DNA from: Candidatus Latescibacterota bacterium
GTDB taxonomy: Bacteria > Latescibacterota > UBA2968 > UBA8231
Length of the DNA stretch: 64,000 bases
NCBI GenBank assembly: GCA_965203175.1
Contig: OZ241867.1
Span: forward strand, 5,248,001 to 5,312,000
Direction of reading: 5' to 3'
In this document: positions 19,575 to 63,706 of the stretch, piece after piece
How the letters are laid out: the number at the start of each line of letters is the position of its first letter
Position numbering within the stretch: position 1 is the first letter of the stretch
Notes under the pieces: model-generated
Database searches by the model: none
What the model was told of the DNA's origin: nothing
Seen by the model: the letters and a program-made list of their open reading frames with translations, nothing else
Position numbers and translations under genes: made by a program

Positions 19575-22043
19575 TCACGCCTTCATCTTCTTGCCTTCCG
19601 GGTCGTACAAAGGCTCTTGCTCAACTGTTGCTTGCAGACGCTCGCCAAAGTAGAGGATGTCAACGCTGGTCCCCACTTCAGTGTAGTTCATCGGCAGATA
19701 ACCATACGCAATGCCAAGGCCGATCGAGTGGCCGTAGTTGGCGCTCGTCACGTAGCCCAACACGCAGTCACCGTCCAAGATTAGCTCCTTGCCCATAACG
19801 ACGGCGTTAGGATCGTCCAGCGTCATACAGCACAGCTTGCGCGTCAGTCCTTGGGCGAGAATTTTCCGCAACGCGTCCCGGCCCAAGAAATCGCCCTTCC
19901 CCATCCTCACCGCGAAACCTATACCAGCCTCGTAAGGATTGTACTCAGTGTGGATGTCATTCCCCCACAGTCGGTAGCCTTTTTCCAAGCGCAGCGAATC
20001 GAAGGCACCTCCACCTGCTGCAACGACTCCGAACGGCTGACCCGCCTCCCACAGAACATCCCACAACCGCAAGCCCTGCTCGGCGGGCGCGTAGATCTCC
20101 CAGCCGAGTTCACCCACGTATGAGATTCGCAGCGCCAGTGCGGAAACCTCGGCTATCCGTATAGGCTTTCCGGTCAAGTAAGGAAAACCCTCGTTGCTCA
20201 CATCGTCCTCACAGACCCGGCTTAACAAGTCGCGCGCGCTTGGCCCCCATAAACCTATACAGCACAGCCCCGACGAAATGTCAGCTACCCCAACCGATCC
20301 GTCGTCCGCTAGCTGCTTCTGAATCCAGCCCAGATCGTGGTGTCCCATAGCTCCACCCGTGACCACCATAAAGCGCTTCTCACCCAGCCGCGTCACGGTC
20401 AGGTCGCACTTAATTCCGCCCCGAGGTGTGAGCATAGACGTGTATGTGATAGTCCCGACGGGCTTGTCCATCTGATTGGTCGCAAGGCGCTGGAGCGCAG
20501 CGAGCGATTCTTCTCCAGTCACCTCGAACTTGGCAAAGGGAGTAAGGTCGAACAGGGCTACTCGCTTGCGAGTGGCGACGTGTTCCGCTGCAATCGTCGG
20601 CGACCATTCTCGCGCCTCCCAGCCAGTTCGCGCTGCGCCGGTAACCGTGAGGGAGTCGAGCAGGCTCTCGTTTGCGGCGTACCACTGGGGACGCTCCCAT
20701 CCCGCGTTCTCAAAGAAGACGGCACCCAATTCCCGCTGTCGCGTATAGAACGGCGTCAGGCGGAGGTTGCGCGGGTTGGCTATCTGCTGGCGCGGGTGGA
20801 TGATGTCGTACACCTCGCGGTACTGTTGTGCAGCTCGGGCGCGGACGTAGGAGCGGCTGTACGCGTGCGGATGAAAGCGCCTTATGTCGCACTCCCGCAG
20901 ATCGCTGGTCGGCTCGCCATTTGCAATCCACTCAGCAACCGCCTTGCCAACGCCTCCAGCGTGTGTAATCCAGACGGCCTGCGCCGACCAAAAACCGCGC
21001 ACCTGGGGCGATTCGCCGAGTACGGGAAACCCATCGGTGGTAAAAGAAAAGAGGCCGTTGAACTTGCGCGTCAATCCCACGCCTTTGAGGCTCGGCAGCA
21101 CCTCTCCCGCCGCGGCCATCGCCTTCTCAAAGTGAGGCGGCGTAAACGGCATCTCGGCCGGAGCAACCGGCGCTTCCTCGTGGTCGAGAATGTCATTGGC
21201 ATCCACTAAAAGAGGTTCATGCTGATACGAGCCAATGCCGTAGCACTCGCCGACCTGCCGGAAGTACATAGCCTCGTCTTGGTGCCGCAAGAACGGCTGC
21301 GATATATCCTCAGCCGCACCAGCGAGTTCCCGCAGTGGCGTCGTAACTGCGTAGAGATGTTGCATCGGCGACAGCGGGATGGGCACGTCGGCAAGCCCGC
21401 CAACCTTTGGAGCCCAGATGCCGGTAGCAGCGACTACCAGGTCCGTCTGGATGTCGCCGCACGTAGTATGGACCGCCTTAATTCGTCCGTCCGCAATAGC
21501 AAAGCCAGTAACCTTGACGTTACTGTAAAACGTGGCACCATTCCGTTCTGCCTCTCGCGCCATCGCTTCAGCCGGCCTCGTCGCCTTCGTCTGGATGTCG
21601 GAAGGAACGTACAGCGCACCCAAAATGCGATCGGACAGCATTGGAATCCGGCTGCGAGCCTCGTCGGCGCTGAGGAGGTGGGCCTCCACGCCCCAACTCA
21701 TGCCATACCCGGCCTTGCGTTTCAGATCGGTGAGGCGCTCCTGCGTCCAAGCCACTTCAAGGCTGCCCACGCTCTTGGCGCACGGCTCGCCATCAAGTTC
21801 CAACTGGCTCCACAGGTCAACCGTATAGCGCGCGAAACCCGTCATGGTCTTCGACGGGTTGAGCTGAAAAACGAGGCCCGGGGCGTGCGAGGTCGAGCCG
21901 CCAGTCTCAAACAGCGGCCCTTGCTCGACGACGACGACATCCCGCCAGCCGAGTTTCGTCAGATGGTATGCGACGCTGCAACCTACGATGCCTGCGCCAA
22001 TGATGACGCCCTTAGCTTGCTGCGGCACTGTGGTATCAGACAT
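19575..22043 (-). CDS. Dimethylglycine oxidase/dehydrogenase-like FAD-dependent oxidoreductase with GcvT domain
   Basis: IIGAGIVG, GGSTSHAPG, AVWITHAGG, GWERPQWY, SYVGELGWEIY, SLRLEKGYRLWG. Confidence 0.88.
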   Translation of the reverse strand: MSDTTVPQQAKGVIIGAGIVGCSVAYHLTKLGWRDVVVVEQGPLFETGGSTSHAPGLVFQLNPSKTMTGFARYTVDLWSQLELDGEPCAKSVGSLEVAWTQERLTDLKRKAGYGMSWGVEAHLLSADEARSRIPMLSDRILGALYVPSDIQTKATRPAEAMAREAERNGATFYSNVKVTGFAIADGRIKAVHTTCGDIQTDLVVAATGIWAPKVGGLADVPIPLSPMQHLYAVTTPLRELAGAAEDISQPFLRHQDEAMYFRQVGECYGIGSYQHEPLLVDANDILDHEEAPVAPAEMPFTPPHFEKAMAAAGEVLPSLKGVGLTRKFNGLFSFTTDGFPVLGESPQVRGFWSAQAVWITHAGGVGKAVAEWIANGEPTSDLRECDIRRFHPHAYSRSYVRARAAQQYREVYDIIHPRQQIANPRNLRLTPFYTRQRELGAVFFENAGWERPQWYAANESLLDSLTVTGAARTGWEAREWSPTIAAEHVATRKRVALFDLTPFAKFEVTGEESLAALQRLATNQMDKPVGTITYTSMLTPRGGIKCDLTVTRLGEKRFMVVTGGAMGHHDLGWIQKQLADDGSVGVADISSGLCCIGLWGPSARDLLSRVCEDDVSNEGFPYLTGKPIRIAEVSALALRISYVGELGWEIYAPAEQGLRLWDVLWEAGQPFGVVAAGGGAFDSLRLEKGYRLWGNDIHTEYNPYEAGIGFAVRMGKGDFLGRDALRKILAQGLTRKLCCMTLDDPNAVVMGKELILDGDCVLGYVTSANYGHSIGLGIAYGYLPMNYTEVGTSVDILYFGERLQATVEQEPLYDPEGKKMKA

Positions 22044-22093
22044 CTCCTATGTCTCCCGAGTCAGCTCATCGGTTGCGATGCGGGCGTTTCCCC

Positions 22094-23185
22094 TCAGACA
22101 TCCATCGCCGGCGGTCCATCGTAGCCAATGCTCTGCCACCCGGCGACATCACCGCCCCTGAGGCGATAGGGATGCGGATACAGCTTGAGCGTGCGGTCCG
22201 CAAACGGCAGAGATACCCGCTCGTGTCCCCGATGAGCCGAGCGCACTAAGGCGATGGCCACTTCGAGCGAGTGGCGGTAGTCGTCTCCACTGCTATACGG
22301 CTCTGTGCCATCCCGATGGGCGCGCATCAGGCGCTCGATCGTATAGGTGAAGGCGTCGGCCACTGGCTGATCCAAAAAGTCGGGATATACCGGAGAAGCC
22401 GCCGCGCCGGTCCCCTCAATCAGCACGGGCCGTGGACGCGCCAAAAAGACCTGCCCGCACTCGCCAGTGACCGAGATAAAGGTCGGCACGCGACCATCCG
22501 GCTCAGGAGCGACGACCTCGCAGACGATGCCGCCGCTCAGCCCCAAGCGGCCGTACGCAGGCACATCCCCCTCCTCACTAGGAGTGCCTTCCGCCACGTA
22601 CCCCGGCACCGCCGGCAAGGTGTACCCTTCCACCCATTCCACGTCCATCCCAGTGAGGATGCGCAAAGCCGCAATCTGCACGCAACCACCGCCCGACACC
22701 TCAGTCGGCAACCCGCCCGGAATCGCCGCCGCCGTCAGCCGACCAATGTGCCCCTGCCGTACCCACTCGACCACATCGGGCATATACGGCGTCGCCCATC
22801 CAGCCTGAGCGCAGCCGAACAACGTGCCGTGCTCCCGGCAGATGCGGATTATTTCGTCGGCCTCGTGCAGTTCGTGAGAAATCGGCTTCTCGCAGGAAAC
22901 CACCCGCACGCCAGCGCGGGCGCATGCGGTGACACACGGGTAATTCTGGCCCACTGGAACCACTGCGGAGACAATGTCGGGCACTTCGGCCGCGAAAAGA
23001 CCATCGAGATCGTCGTACACCTTCTCCACGCCGTAGCGCTGGGCAATGGCATCCCGCCGCTCTCTAGCGCGATCGACGAGGCCGACAATCTCACAGTTGG
23101 GATGGGCGGCGTACGCGCGCGTATAATAGCGGCCCCACGTGCCGGCCGCACCGACGACGGCCACTCGGTATTGTCCATTAGTCAT
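22094..23185 (-). CDS. Gfo/Idh/MocA family oxidoreductase
   Basis: RVAVVGAAGTWG Rossmann motif, CEKP motif. Confidence 0.85.
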   Translation of the reverse strand: MTNGQYRVAVVGAAGTWGRYYTRAYAAHPNCEIVGLVDRARERRDAIAQRYGVEKVYDDLDGLFAAEVPDIVSAVVPVGQNYPCVTACARAGVRVVSCEKPISHELHEADEIIRICREHGTLFGCAQAGWATPYMPDVVEWVRQGHIGRLTAAAIPGGLPTEVSGGGCVQIAALRILTGMDVEWVEGYTLPAVPGYVAEGTPSEEGDVPAYGRLGLSGGIVCEVVAPEPDGRVPTFISVTGECGQVFLARPRPVLIEGTGAAASPVYPDFLDQPVADAFTYTIERLMRAHRDGTEPYSSGDDYRHSLEVAIALVRSAHRGHERVSLPFADRTLKLYPHPYRLRGGDVAGWQSIGYDGPPAMDV

Positions 23186-23244
23186 TGTTAGTCTCCTAAT
23201 TGACGAGAATAGAGGTCACAGTTATATTTTTGCGCGGAGAATAA

Positions 23245-23310
23245 ATGATGCAGAACCTACGCGCCGAACGCTACTACTACTATTACACCTCGCTTCATAG
23301 ACAGGGGTAA
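23245..23310 (+). CDS. Tyrosine-rich leader peptide (21 aa, MMQNLRAERYYYYYTSLHRQG) of tyrS
   Basis: RBS GGAGA at 23236-23240, ATG 23245, Tyr codons TAC TAC TAC TAT TAC at 23272-23286, TAA 23308-23310; ends 79 nt before tyrS. Confidence 0.85.
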   Translation: MMQNLRAERYYYYYTSLHRQG

Positions 23311-23351
23311 TGCGTTCGCTTTATCGTCTCAACCGCGTTTACAAGCCCCTG
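23302..23351 (+). promoter_or_regulatory. Antiterminator of the tyrS attenuator
   Basis: CAGGGG (23302-23307) is complementary to CCCCTG (23346-23351), the 5' arm of the terminator; extra pairing possible between GTAATGCG and CGCGTTTAC. Confidence 0.7.
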
Positions 23352-23370
23352 ATTACAGGGGCTTTTTTTT
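23343..23370 (+). terminator. Intrinsic terminator (attenuator) in the tyrS leader
   Basis: AAGCCCCTG-ATTA-CAGGGGCTT followed by a T run ending at 23370, located upstream of the tyrS start. Confidence 0.9.
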
Positions 23371-23389
23371 ATGCCCATAAGGAAATGCG

Positions 23390-24637
23390 ATGAACATCAT
23401 ACCCGATCTTGAATTTCGCGGCTTGATCTACCAAGTCACCGACCTCGACGGCCTCGCCGAACGCCTCGCTGCCGGTCCGATCGTGCTCTACAATGGCTTC
23501 GACCCAACCGCCGACAGCCTGACGGTGGGCAACCTCGTGCCGATCCTACTCCTGCGCCGCTTCCAGCTCGCCGGCCACAAGGTCATCGCCTTGGCTGGCG
23601 GCGGCACCGGCCTGATCGGCGACCCAGGCGGCAAGACCGAGGAGCGCCAGCTCAATGCCGCCGACGTCGTGGCCAAGTGGACACAGCAGGTCAAAGCCCA
23701 GCTAGAGCGCTTCCTCGAATTCGACGGCCCCAACCCCGCGATCATGGTCGATAACCACGACTGGCTCGGCCAACTCGCGGCCATCGACTTTATGCGCGAC
23801 GTCGGCAAGCACTTTCCCGTCCCCTACATGCTGGCCAAGGACTCGGTCGCCTCGCGCCTGGAAACGGGCATTTCCTACACCGAGTTCAGCTACATGGCGC
23901 TACAGGCGTACGACTTTTTGGTCCTCAACGAAAAATACGGCTGCGAGCTGCAGACCGGCGGCTCTGACCAGTGGGGCAATATCACCGCCGGCACCGATCT
24001 GATCCGCCGCTCCGCCGGCAGCCGGGCCTTTGGCCTGACTTGCCCGCTAGTAACCAAAGCAGACGGCACCAAGTTCGGCAAGACCGAGGCCGGCACAGTC
24101 TGGCTCGACGCTGTTAAGACCTCGCCTTACCAGTTTTACCAGTTCTGGATCAACGCCGAGGACCAGAAGGTCGTCGCTCTCCTGAAAACGTACACCTTCT
24201 TGGAGCAGGACGCGATCCTCCAGCTCGCCGAGACCGTCCGCGACCAGCCCGAACGGCGCGAGGCCCAGCGCACCCTCGCCGCTGAGGCAACGACCATTGT
24301 GCACGGAGCCGACGCTGCTCGCCGGGCCGAACGCATCTCGCACGCGCTCTTTTACGGGGAATTTCAGGACCTATCCGAGGAGGAAATCCTCGAAGGCTTT
24401 GACGACGTGCCAACGCACGCGATGGGTCAGGAGGAATTAGGACTGGTCGATCTGCTCGTCGCAGCCGGCGTCTCACCCTCCAAGCGCCAAGCCCGCCAAG
24501 ACGTGCAAAACGGCTCGATCTACATCAACGGCGAGCGCTGCACGGACATGGCGCGGAGCATGCGGTGCCAAGAGGGCTTACACGGCAAATACCTAATCGT
24601 GCGCCGTGGCAAGAAGCAGTACACCCTCGTCTGCTAG
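23390..24637 (+). CDS. tyrS: Tyrosyl-tRNA synthetase
   Basis: YNGFDPTADSL, GGGTGLIGDPGGK, TEFSYMALQAYDF, QTGGSDQWGNI, KFGKT, C-terminal S4 domain RRGKK. Confidence 0.97.
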   Translation: MNIIPDLEFRGLIYQVTDLDGLAERLAAGPIVLYNGFDPTADSLTVGNLVPILLLRRFQLAGHKVIALAGGGTGLIGDPGGKTEERQLNAADVVAKWTQQVKAQLERFLEFDGPNPAIMVDNHDWLGQLAAIDFMRDVGKHFPVPYMLAKDSVASRLETGISYTEFSYMALQAYDFLVLNEKYGCELQTGGSDQWGNITAGTDLIRRSAGSRAFGLTCPLVTKADGTKFGKTEAGTVWLDAVKTSPYQFYQFWINAEDQKVVALLKTYTFLEQDAILQLAETVRDQPERREAQRTLAAEATTIVHGADAARRAERISHALFYGEFQDLSEEEILEGFDDVPTHAMGQEELGLVDLLVAAGVSPSKRQARQDVQNGSIYINGERCTDMARSMRCQEGLHGKYLIVRRGKKQYTLVC

Positions 24638-25101
24638 CTCTCAGGCTGCAAGAGCGATAAGAACTGCTCAAAGTCCTGCGCAAAATCGCGTTGGATGCAC
24701 ACGACTTTGGCCGCCAGACTCGCCACCTTGTCGGAATCCAAATCCGCGGTGTATGCGTGGCGAAACAGATGGCGGAATCGCCGCAATTCATCTAGGTCGG
24801 AAGCAGTTTCTGCGGACAGGAGCGCTGGGCGGATACCCTCGATCTCTAGCTGCATCCGCCTAATCATATCCGCGTGATATCTTGCTTCGTCGATTTGGTT
24901 CTCAAAGAATCGCGCTACTTCCTCGAACAACTGCTCAAACGCGCCATAAAGGTTGTGGAGCTGGTACCCCATGCTGTCCACCCCCTCGGCACTACGAGCA
25001 AACGTGCCTAGGCGTTCCTCGATGCGACCGCCGATGCGACTGATGTCTCGGACACGCGCTCGCAACCCCGCTTCGAGAACCGCGAAGGCCCCTTTATCCA
25101 T
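24634..25101 (-). CDS. HEPN (HepT-like) ribonuclease toxin
   Basis: LHNLYGAFEQLF and LDELRRFRHLFRHAY (RxxxxH); coupled to the upstream MNT. Confidence 0.8.
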   Translation of the reverse strand: MDKGAFAVLEAGLRARVRDISRIGGRIEERLGTFARSAEGVDSMGYQLHNLYGAFEQLFEEVARFFENQIDEARYHADMIRRMQLEIEGIRPALLSAETASDLDELRRFRHLFRHAYTADLDSDKVASLAAKVVCIQRDFAQDFEQFLSLLQPES

Positions 25102-25432
25102 ACACTTTGACTCCAGACTGAGTAAAGGATTGAGGGGAAGGATGCCGGTCGAGGTCGATTACGTCCACCTCTCTGCCGGTAACATCCTCCAGCGCTTTCA
25201 TTACTTCGAGCACAACAGGTGAGCAGCCTCCCACAGCCACGTCAATGTCGGACGACTCCCGCCAAGAATCGGGCGACCGCAGCGAGCCCACGATGTACGC
25301 GGCCTCAATTCCGAGAGGTTCCCGTAGCTCCAACAGGGTACAACGAACACAGTCGAGCAACTCGGCTTGCTCTGCCGCTAGCCGCTGGCGTCGCGCTCTT
25401 ATGGCCTCGTCGAGGATGCTGGTGTCGAACAT
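25094..25432 (-). CDS. Minimal nucleotidyltransferase (MNT) antitoxin
   Basis: YIVGSL...SSDIDVAV...REVDVIDL Pol-beta NTase motifs. Confidence 0.85.
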   Translation of the reverse strand: MFDTSILDEAIRARRQRLAAEQAELLDCVRCTLLELREPLGIEAAYIVGSLRSPDSWRESSDIDVAVGGCSPVVLEVMKALEDVTGREVDVIDLDRHPSPQSFTQSGVKVYG

Positions 25433-62272: not shown

Positions 62273-62326
62273 ACTGACTCTTTCTCTATTGCCACATCTT
62301 GCGACTAACCCCTCTTTAATAGACTT

Positions 62327-63706
62327 ATGACCCTGCATCTTTTTGATACCTATGCCCGCCAAGAGCGCCCCTTCACACCGCTCGCGCCTCCTCAAGTCCG
62401 CCTGTATGCCTGCGGCCCGACCGTGTACAACTACCAGCACATCGGCAACCTGCGCACCTATATCTTCGAAGACATCCTGCGGCGAGCCCTCGAATACAGC
62501 GGCTATGAGGTCCACCACGTCGTCAACATCACCGACGTGGGGCACCTAACCTCCGACGCGGACACCGGCGAGGACAAGATGGAAGCCGGCTCGCGGCGCA
62601 CCGGCCTGACAGCTTGGGAAATCGCCGAGCGCTACACCGCGGATTTCCAAGAGAAGCTCGAATGGCTCAACGTGCTCGCGCCTCACGTCTGGTGCCGGGC
62701 CACCGACCACATTCGCGAGCAGATCGCGGCCATCGCCGCCATTGAGGAAAAAGGCTACGCGTACCGCACGGACGACGGCCTGTACTTCGACACTTCGCGC
62801 CTGAGCGACTACGGCCACCTCGCCCGCCTCGACATCGAGGGCCTGCAAGGCGGTCAGCGCGTCGATCTTGGGCAGAAGCGCCGCGTCACGGACTTCGCGC
62901 TGTGGAAGTTCAGCCCAGAAAAGACGCAGCGACAGATGGAATGGGACAGCCCGTGGGGGCGCGGCTTTCCCGGCTGGCACATCGAATGCACGGCCATGGC
63001 GGCCAAGTACTTGGGGCCGTACTTTGACATCCACTGCGGCGGCGAGGATCACATTCCAGTCCACCACACCAACGAGATCGCCCAATCCCAAGCCTGCTAC
63101 GACACGCGGCTGGCCGAATTTTGGCTCCACGGCGCGTTTTTGCAACTCGACGGGGAGAAGATGTCCAAGTCAAGCGGCGATTTCCTGCGCCTCGAATCCC
63201 TCGTCGAAGAAGGGTACGACCCCCTCGCCTATCGCTTTTTCTGCCTCGGGGCGCGCTACCGGGCCAAGCTCTCCTTTAGCTGGGAGAGCCTCGCCGGCGC
63301 GGCCACGGCCCTCGACCGGCTGCGCGCCGCCGCCCACGCCTGGGGTGCGCCGTCTGAACCCGAAGACCGCTACGTGGCCGCGTTCAAAGAGCGCGTCGAG
63401 GACGACCTCAACATGCCGCGCGTCCTCGCCCTGTGCTGGGAACTCGTAGCCGATGATCTTTCCGACGCCGTCAAGAAGGCCACGCTCCTGCACTTCGATC
63501 AGGTCATGGGCTTGGGACTAGCCACGTGGACGCCGCAAGAGGAGGCCATACCCAACTCGATTCACGCGCTCGCCGCTCAGCGCCAACAGGCCCGTGACAC
63601 CAAGGACTGGTCCACGGCCGACGCCCTGCGCGACGAAATCGCCGCAGCCGGCTACGAAATCGAAGACACCCCCCAAGGCCCCAACATCCGCCCGCGCAAA
63701 ACCTAA
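62327..63706 (+). CDS. cysS: Cysteinyl-tRNA synthetase
   Basis: CGPTVY, HIGN, DFALWK, PGWHIEC, HHTNEIAQ, KMSKS. Confidence 0.97.
   Translation: MTLHLFDTYARQERPFTPLAPPQVRLYACGPTVYNYQHIGNLRTYIFEDILRRALEYSGYEVHHVVNITDVGHLTSDADTGEDKMEAGSRRTGLTAWEIAERYTADFQEKLEWLNVLAPHVWCRATDHIREQIAAIAAIEEKGYAYRTDDGLYFDTSRLSDYGHLARLDIEGLQGGQRVDLGQKRRVTDFALWKFSPEKTQRQMEWDSPWGRGFPGWHIECTAMAAKYLGPYFDIHCGGEDHIPVHHTNEIAQSQACYDTRLAEFWLHGAFLQLDGEKMSKSSGDFLRLESLVEEGYDPLAYRFFCLGARYRAKLSFSWESLAGAATALDRLRAAAHAWGAPSEPEDRYVAAFKERVEDDLNMPRVLALCWELVADDLSDAVKKATLLHFDQVMGLGLATWTPQEEAIPNSIHALAAQRQQARDTKDWSTADALRDEIAAAGYEIEDTPQGPNIRPRKT

Follow-up and report, generated by a model that had tools for sequence, protein, structure and literature searches.

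The gene tyrS, encoding tyrosyl-tRNA synthetase (TyrRS), lies behind a short leader in a 64,000-nucleotide (nt) stretch of the Candidatus Latescibacterota bacterium contig OZ241867.1. This whole stretch is referred to as the window, and coordinates are window positions unless a locus is named. The leader comprises a promoter-like site, a ribosome-binding site (RBS), a short upstream open reading frame (uORF) with five consecutive Tyr codons, and an intrinsic terminator that ends just before tyrS. Judged from the sequence and from RNA folding, it very probably functions as a ribosome-mediated transcription attenuator of tyrS that senses Tyr-tRNA. A first-pass annotation of this DNA had proposed such an attenuator, and the comparative and fold analyses described here, both computational, support the proposal. 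The leader thereby joins a well-known class, of which the mechanism itself is not new; the amino acid, the gene and the uncultured phylum are new.

Elements of the tyrS leader and their alternative pairings

The GGAGA RBS, the uORF, the five Tyr codons, the sequence CAGGGG, the terminator and the 19-nt gap to tyrS, all of which the first-pass annotation had listed, were recovered in place (Table 1). The 415-amino acid (aa) product of the downstream gene matched the Pfam tRNA-synt_1b domain, the SYY C-terminal domain and NCBIfam TIGR00234 (394.5 bits), identifying the gene as tyrS. No other tyrosyl-tRNA synthetase gene was found in the genome; a search with PF00579 returned tyrS and one second match, which reads as trpS, judged by its size and its place after a trpC-like gene. 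The gene upstream of the leader (22094-23185) codes for a Gfo/Idh/MocA-type oxidoreductase and is divergently oriented on the minus strand. Therefore, the terminator serves no other gene, and the transcription of tyrS must pass through it. There is no space for a promoter between the terminator and the tyrS ATG, which is located 19 nt past the end of the T run.

The run of Tyr codons is the sole run of at least five TAY triplets on both strands of the genome (6,579,469 bases), where approximately 0.05 such runs are expected from the base composition. Other runs of four TAY triplets were inspected and rejected as leaders; they are located within genes or AT-rich spacers. When a profile of the leader was searched against the genome with nhmmer, a single full-length match was obtained (E 7.8e-40), and the remaining matches covered the terminator part only. 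The first-pass annotation had assigned 21 codons to the leader ORF, which corresponds to a start at the ATG at 23245 (23245..23310, encoding M(M)QNLRAERYYYYYTSLHRQG). The ORF is present, but the second ATG, at 23248, is the start common to all 26 aligned sequences of the genus described below, giving 20 codons.

The promoter-like site (TTGACG-17-TATATT) matches the sigma-70 type at 10 of 12 positions, with 0.4 sites expected in shuffled sequences. It probably drives a leader-tyrS transcript whose start would be near 23235. The intrinsic terminator, AAGCCCCTG-ATTA-CAGGGGCTT at 23343-23364 with eight T residues running to 23370, has nine pairs, six of which are GC. Its calculated free energy (dG) was -16.1 kcal/mol (z-score, -5.4), and none of 200 shuffled sequences equaled it.

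The leader can form three mutually exclusive hairpins (1:2, 2:3 and 3:4) out of four segments. Their free energies are nearly equal (-15.5, -16.3 and -16.1 kcal/mol, respectively), and all of them were better than those of shuffled sequences. The 1:2 hairpin (23265-23318, folded as 23264-23320; z-score, -2.8) encloses the Tyr codons, and its ACCUC and neighboring residues pair with CAGGGGUA. The 2:3 hairpin (23302-23351; z-score, -2.2) consists of the pairing CAGGGGU:GCCCCUG and a second, extending helix. The best partner of the terminator 5' arm in the leader was located at -7 to +1 from the stop codon (dG, -13.5), and this value was equaled in none of 200 shuffles. The outline of the first-pass annotation had contained segments 2, 3 and 4, which were retained here, but it had missed segment 1, and with it the 1:2 hairpin that sequesters CAGGGG when the leader is untranslated. 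As modeled, the leader follows the four-segment logic of trpL-type attenuators.

The effect of a ribosome was modeled by masking nucleotides in the transcript as it stands before segment 4 exists. For a stalled ribosome, the A site was placed on the last of the Tyr codons and the 13 nt downstream were masked. Without a ribosome, segment 2 was sequestered by segment 1 and segment 3 was free. Under the stall mask, 7 of the 9 nt of segment 3 were paired with segment 2 (-16.3 kcal/mol). Under the stop-codon mask, next to no structure was formed (-2.3 kcal/mol). These folds agree with the alternatives drawn in the first-pass annotation, where a ribosome on the Tyr codons lets the CAGGGG segment pair with the terminator 5' arm and a ribosome at the stop codon masks that segment.

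Based on these pairings, the following mechanism is proposed. The transcript would begin at the promoter-like site at 23200-23228, and a ribosome would load on the 20-codon leader ORF. When Tyr-tRNA is ample, the ribosome would reach the stop codon and its footprint would hide segment 2 (CAGGGGUA...); with segment 2 hidden, segment 3 would pair with segment 4, and RNA polymerase would terminate at the U run, 19 nt before tyrS. When Tyr-tRNA is scarce, the ribosome would stall on the five Tyr codons, hiding segment 1 and not segment 2. The free segment 2 would then capture the emerging segment 3 to form the antiterminator (-16.3 kcal/mol), so that no terminator would be formed and tyrS would be transcribed. 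Without any ribosome, segment 1 would pair with segment 2 (-15.5 kcal/mol), and termination would be the default. In this way, tyrS would respond to tyrosine through a kinetic competition between the hairpins.

RNA evidence came from assembled library contigs of relatives that are 90-99% alike; these libraries are unstranded and may contain DNA. A 425-nt contig from a sponge-labeled library (X4 record 4) covers 23166-23588 and joins the leader, in an HYYY variant, to the terminator and the 5' end of tyrS, which weakly supports the co-transcription of the leader and tyrS. No contig lay over the leader in three of the four RNA-library runs, and contig X7 starts at 23366; such ends and gaps are not readable as transcript ends, and nothing was concluded from them.

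Table 1. Positions of the elements of the tyrS leader in the window and of the thrS and second-aspS leaders in their own locus coordinates
Feature	Position	Strand	Description
Promoter-like site	23200-23228	+	sigma-70-like; -35 TTGACG 23200-23205, 17-nt spacer, -10 TATATT 23223-23228
Shine-Dalgarno GGAG	23236-23239	+	within GGAGA 23236-23240; 8 nt ahead of the conserved ATG 23248
Leader ORF	23248-23310	+	20 codons and stop from the conserved ATG; TAA 23308-23310; peptide MQNLRAERYYYYYTSLHRQG
Tyr codons (predicted control codons)	23272-23286	+	TAC TAC TAC TAT TAC, five in a row
CAGGGG	23302-23307	+	at the end of the leader ORF, within segment 2
Segment 1	23265-23294	+	5' half of the 1:2 (anti-antiterminator) hairpin; holds the Tyr codons as well as ACCUC, the partner of GGGG of segment 2
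Segment 2	23299-23319	+	..CAGGGGUAAUGCGUUCG..; overlaps the stop codon; partner is segment 1 or segment 3
Segment 3	23343-23351	+	AAGCCCCUG; 5' arm of the terminator
Segment 4 and U run	23356-23370	+	CAGGGGCUU; 3' arm of the terminator; T run 23363-23370
tyrS RBS and ORF	23380-24637	+	AGGA 23380-23383; ORF 23390-24637, 415 aa
thrS leader (L111)	uORF 2604-2488; hairpin 2456-2428; T run 2427-2423; thrS ATG 2405	-	
Second-aspS leaders (L112; G000:C1:2039800-2042300)	promoter-like site 2375-2348; uORF-1 ATG 2339; terminator 2247-2217; uORF-2 ATG 2192; second terminator ends near 2052; aspS ATG 2019	-	

Conservation of the leader among Latescibacterota

The organism is uncultured and represented solely by metagenome-assembled genomes. 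The relatives compared were metagenome-assembled genomes of Candidatus Latescibacterota, a few of which are labeled Gemmatimonadetes. The same-genus set consisted of 27 tyrS loci (L001-L023, L045, L049, L051 and L052), of which 26 sequences were aligned. The promoter, the uORF with two to six Tyr codons, and the terminator were present in all 27 loci. The sequence of L021 contains N and has two Tyr codons, which are separated. HYYY was the most frequent form in the genus, and the YYYYY of the window is towards the upper end. The box TTGAC plus (G)TTATATT was kept in the genus alignment, and similar boxes were found ahead of the uORF in other genera; GGAG was at the same place in 23 of the 26 sequences, with L020, L022 and L023 deviating. 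TAT and TAC were used 63 and 25 times, respectively, in the uORFs of the genus, giving 10 distinct codon strings among the 26 sequences. In addition, the indels within the uORF were all multiples of three, and 1- and 2-nt indels occurred only 3' of the stop codon. The interchange of TAT and TAC, the whole-codon indels and the shared start indicate that the run is read as codons. In L049 (G143:C1:1164558-1165922), tyrS matched in two pieces (residues 1-234 and 224-415) approximately 90 nt apart in one 469-aa frame, which suggests that this tyrS holds an in-frame insertion; its leader is intact.

These features bear on a tRNA- or protein-binding switch, in which uncharged tRNA(Tyr) would be recognized through its GUA anticodon, with the UAC/UAU run as the specifier of a miniature T-box, or the leader would be bound by TyrRS itself. 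Repeated Tyr codons are repeated anticodon-complementary sites too, some lineages hold one Tyr codon, as a specifier would, and the closest tyrS homologs outside the phylum are T-box controlled (Paenibacillus L086, 94.2 bits). On the other hand, in an Rfam search of the window region 22000-25000 at E<=10, no match came near any gathering score, with Phe_leader (RF01859, described in Rfam as "Phenylalanine leader peptide"; 22 bits versus 55) ranking best and Trp_leader (RF00513; 16.4 bits versus 41) also being below its threshold, and the T-box family (RF00230) gave no match. Nor was a T-box found at the gathering score in any of 16 Latescibacterota loci scanned with the Paenibacillus locus as the positive control. 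The transcribed leader is only about 135 nt long. Furthermore, in every case the Tyr triplets belong to the frame of an ORF that has a Shine-Dalgarno sequence as well as a start codon, they vary by whole codons with free interchange of TAT and TAC, and the stop codon is always at or beside segment 2. Since a non-translational model requires neither in-frame codons nor whole-codon indels nor this placement of the stop codon, a binding switch is considered very unlikely.

A search of the phylum at E<=1e-60 found tyrS in 131 of 168 genomes. The 430-nt stretches upstream of tyrS were then surveyed at 39 loci spread over the 17 remaining genera of the window's family and at 21 loci from four other families, a locus being scored as positive when a terminator was preceded by a Tyr-containing uORF ending at most 60 nt ahead of it. 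The leader architecture was found at 31 of the 39 loci, and in 15 of 18 genera when the genus of the window is included. All 58 positive loci of the family had the terminator, and 24 of the 31 positive loci outside the genus had at least two Tyr codons. A Tyr leader with a terminator was found at none of the 28 loci outside the family, namely 21 from the four families and seven of genus g2. The tyrS of g2 appears to follow a trpF-like gene, judged by the C-terminal translation of the latter.

The leader peptides were almost wholly different between genera (e.g., MTRTIAYRYYYYASGG, MKPIYRYYHLGTSGG, MPVITPAFAYYRYRYYRDTYRGALL, MALKSYYYRLEKQYGG and MTTHRLRAYYRYYRSPGAFD), and the arms of the terminators differed as well. 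What persisted were the Tyr codons, an Arg codon before one Tyr codon (in 13 of the 15 representatives of the genera) and a 3' end rich in G. The Arg codon directly before the Tyr codon was often CGA or CGC. With one representative per genus, Tyr accounted for 53 of 296 leader residues (17.9%), compared with 2.1% in the remaining frames of these regions, a comparison in which the selection of the ORFs favored Tyr. When the best ORF was chosen separately for each residue, which removes this bias, Tyr ranked first, with at least three in six codons in nine of the 15 genera; Arg ranked second (five of the 15 genera) despite a 5.5x higher background.

The same comparison bears on the reading of this DNA as a free-standing small gene or small RNA with a constitutive terminator, in which the Tyr run would be a trait of a micropeptide and tyrS would be transcribed by leaky read-through or from an unrecognized promoter. 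The promoter, Shine-Dalgarno sequence, ORF and terminator do form a formally complete unit, and a second, weaker promoter-like site is present at 23298-23327, yet it is still located 5' of the terminator. However, the peptide is not kept between genera except for Tyr and the preceding Arg, and its C-terminal Gly codons follow the G run required for pairing with the terminator. The element is always directly before tyrS and nowhere else in the genome, and the distance from the T run to the tyrS ATG is only 19 nt. A free-standing gene is thus a very improbable explanation.

The Arg codon before Tyr could also point to a nascent-peptide arrest sensor of the TnaC/SecM kind, in which an Arg-Tyr core would stall the ribosome on free tyrosine or another signal instead of on the supply of Tyr-tRNA. 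In addition to the Arg codon in 13 of the 15 representatives, seven leaders with a single Tyr in a ..RRYRR.. context have few control codons for a supply sensor. However, the length and sequence around the core vary widely, and in most genera Tyr is multiplied to two to six codons, as a supply sensor predicts. The conservation can also be explained at the RNA level, as the CGN-UAY nucleotides join the 1:2 helix in some lineages, and this genome's leaders for thrS and aspS, described below, are plain codon runs. Arrest by the nascent peptide therefore has very little probability. The near-invariant Arg-Tyr core and the single-Tyr lineages may reflect RNA pairing in the 1:2 helix, a peptide effect, or a slow CGN codon beside UAY that would enhance the stall, so that one control codon might be enough. 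Leaders with a single Tyr in a ..DRRYRR.. context, or other examples of Arg before Tyr, were seen at L178, L183, L186, L189, L191 and L201.

The pairings expected of a Tyr-tRNA-sensing attenuator were followed across 19 diverged representatives. In 18 of them, the best partner of the terminator 5' arm was located around the uORF stop codon, in the interval from approximately 30 nt before it to 11 nt after it; for one of the 18 (L016), a wrong reading frame had been chosen for scoring. In the 19th, L067, a long duplex extends across the stop codon (-28 to +21). Segment 2 changes along with the terminator arm between genera: CACCGGGGG faces CCCCCGGUG, and elsewhere CCGUCCUCG faces CGAGGAUGG. When the 19 representatives were folded without segment 4, segment 2 paired with 5 nt or more of segment 3 in all of them under the stall mask, and most showed weak folds under the stop mask. 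Approximately half of the representatives have no 1:2 hairpin. In those, the antiterminator would form by default without a ribosome, indicating that three-segment and four-segment versions of the leader both exist. In one genus (L067, L068, L070, L074, L075 and L078), the ATG of the uORF is located approximately 7 nt after the -10 box (..GTAGATTGGCCGCCATG..) with no Shine-Dalgarno sequence; the leader peptide of this genus may be translated from a leaderless transcript.

Several observations weigh against the assignment of the leader as an attenuator. As checks, the first-pass annotation had named a conserved in-frame Tyr uORF and covarying stems in relatives. The in-frame uORF and the terminator were indeed kept at 27 of 27 loci of the genus and 31 of 39 loci of other genera, but covariation within the genus was not significant. 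For the antiterminator (2:3), there were no pairs with changes on both sides, and 222 of 500 shuffles reached the observed score; for the 1:2 helix, there were two such pairs, and 44 of 500 shuffles reached the observed score. Because the terminator and the G run are invariant in the genus, these counts are uninformative, and the support comes from the architecture kept across diverged genera. Between genera, the shuffle tests of the 2:3 duplex in single sequences were weak for many of the lineages (between 0 and 0.58 of the shuffles did as well), and the cross-genus argument therefore rests on the consistent position of the partner. Outside the genus, seven of the 31 positive loci carry only a single Tyr codon, in an Arg-rich context resembling ..DRRYRR... 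At eight of the 39 loci of the family, no leader of this kind was seen. For two of the eight, the view is restricted by the contig end (L211, where only the terminator is visible) or by an uncertain gene start (L195); in L210, tyrS has internal stops; L196, which shares its genome with L076, retains the terminator and a homologous frame that lacks an ATG, GTG or TTG start; and the remaining negatives are L176, L199, L200 and L209. Moreover, kin are not independent, so the locus counts overstate the number of independent observations. Finally, the full leader of the window keeps the terminator in its minimum-energy fold even under the mask of a stalled ribosome. As the terminator remains the thermodynamic optimum, antitermination must be kinetic, as in the classical systems, and in the model read-through would hinge on a kinetic window.

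Leaders of other synthetase genes in the same genome

The aminoacyl-tRNA synthetase genes of the genome were located by Pfam searches, and the DNA upstream of each was read by eye; names other than tyrS, thrS and the second aspS are a reading of size and N-terminal sequence. Upstream of thrS (TIGR00418, 687 bits; locus L111, G000:C1:2322000-2325000), there are, in this order, a promoter-like site, a 38-codon uORF, a hairpin (CCCCGCTGTC-N9-GACAGCGGGG) with T5, and an AAGGAG RBS. The uORF, MISAMLTVASAPCLSGLPSGPTATTTTTTTTTTTMCAG, contains 11 consecutive Thr codons, the sole run of at least eight ACN triplets in the genome. It was found at 23 of 23 same-genus loci and is Thr-rich in most of them, with four to eight Thr codons in the best 8-codon window. 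In genus g2, which belongs to another family, thrS (L137-L142) lacks a Thr-rich uORF and has a conserved GC hairpin (..CGCGCGCCGG..CGAGCGCG) and a T run immediately ahead of its start codon.

The second aspS (NF001750, 808.9 bits), which is 44% identical to the housekeeping copy, carries two attenuator-like leaders in tandem: MITRQNDRTQNNNPLAPLRVF with a terminator, followed by MTFRYNHTAYAFANNNDNNPAIRARWRWP with a terminator. Their codons are Asn/Asp and rich in Asn. Copies of this gene (at least 91% identical) were present in 17 of 25 genus genomes searched; they show one form of the leader or the other, and an Asn-rich uORF was found at 16 of the 17 loci, the 17th being cut by the contig end. 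The genome also contains an AsnRS-like gene. Judged from these sequences, the second AspRS may be non-discriminating and induced by a shortage of Asn-tRNA.

With tyrS, thrS and aspS each preceded by a terminator and a run of its own codons, the reading of the tyrS leader as a chance arrangement is untenable. No cognate-codon leader was seen by eye before two further tRNA-synt_1 genes (frames of 1073 and 922 aa), the MetRS-, LeuRS-, proS-, serS- and glyQS-like genes, trpS, pheS, two tRNA-synt_1c genes, argS, cysS, alaS, hisS, the AsnRS-like gene, a further 452-aa tRNA-synt_2 gene, or the first AspRS-like gene. The cysS gene is located near the end of the window (approximately 62326-63705, plus strand), and no Cys-codon uORF or terminator is visible upstream of it; thus, not all synthetase genes of the genome carry such a leader. 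Genome scans for further codon-run leaders yielded mostly noise, and three extra candidates that were checked sit inside long ORFs.

A broader reading would combine these leaders: leader-peptide attenuation would be a general control of aminoacyl-tRNA synthetases in this Latescibacterota family, covering tyrS, thrS and the accessory aspS in the role that the T-box has in Bacillota, and including the non-discriminating AspRS and the context-enhanced Arg-Tyr stall. Taken as a whole, this combination is tentative and somewhat doubtful.

Just 3' of tyrS in the window, an overlapping pair of minus-strand genes (24634-25101 and 25094-25432) codes for a HepT-like protein and a Pol-beta-type nucleotidyltransferase; the pair looks like a HepT/MNT toxin-antitoxin pair.

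Comparison with known attenuators and with T-box control

Leader-peptide attenuation is well established for the Trp, His, Phe, Leu, Thr and Ile/Val operons. The leaders trpL, hisL, pheL, thrL and leuL have four segments (1:2, 2:3 and 3:4); their control codons fall within segment 1 or adjoin it, and the stop codon adjoins segment 2. The tyrS leader of the window shares this design, including the placement of the control codons and of the stop codon. It differs in that a synthetase gene, not a biosynthetic operon, would be controlled, and in that some sister lineages have no 1:2 hairpin, so that the antiterminator would be the default. Closer in its target is pheM of Escherichia coli pheST, a short ORF rich in the cognate codon with terminator and antiterminator alternatives directly upstream of the synthetase gene. 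Both leaders place a cognate-codon ORF and such alternatives before a synthetase gene, and in both the signal is, or would be, charged tRNA, which the regulated enzyme itself makes. The tyrS leader differs from pheM in its amino acid (Tyr, not Phe), gene and phylum, and the two have no sequence relationship.

To our knowledge, the synthetase genes with known or predicted leader-peptide attenuation are few: pheST, trpS, leuS, hisS paralogs and cysS. Attenuation of pheST is on record in gamma-proteobacteria and attenuators of trpS and leuS are predicted in Streptomyces (PMC1262725), leader-peptide attenuators are predicted for hisS paralogs in Bacilli (PMC2965389), and the uORFC-8-2 motif is a predicted attenuator of cysS in Rhodobacterales (PMC8632094). 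The trpS, leuS, hisS and cysS leaders resemble the tyrS leader in being computationally defined and in having cognate codons (Trp, Leu, His and Cys, respectively) and a terminator before a synthetase gene. Unlike those four, the present leader concerns tyrosine and tyrS in Latescibacterota, and it is kept across 15 genera with a strongly diverged sequence. The main text of PMC2965389 mentions neither tyrS nor tyrosine. No Tyr leader peptide for tyrS is described in the full-text literature searched; supplementary tables of comparative-genomics papers might list one.

If the attenuator is real, this mechanism reaches a phylum without cultured members, and approximately 58 natural variants, with one to six Tyr codons, three or four segments and possibly leaderless uORFs, would be available for studying the evolution of attenuators and the minimal number of control codons. 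Together, the tyrS, thrS and aspS leaders offer a handle for annotating regulation in metagenome-assembled genomes and could serve synthetic biology as compact parts that respond to Tyr, Thr and Asn.

The gene tyrS is the founding example of T-box control. The T-box of Bacillota tyrS (RF00230) and the leader described here act on the same gene, and in both the choice between terminator and antiterminator is, or would be, set by the charging of tRNA(Tyr). The T-box, however, reads uncharged tRNA directly, in a structured RNA of approximately 220 nt and without translation. The TyrRS of the window is approximately 60% identical to that of Paenibacillus, and its nearest homologs outside the phylum are those of Paenibacillus and other Bacillota. 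Given a T-box at the one Paenibacillus tyrS locus that returned a match and none in the 16 Latescibacterota loci scanned, two different sensors of tRNA(Tyr) charging appear to govern the same gene in different phyla. If this is true, one tRNA-charging sensor has been convergently replaced by another on the same orthologous gene.

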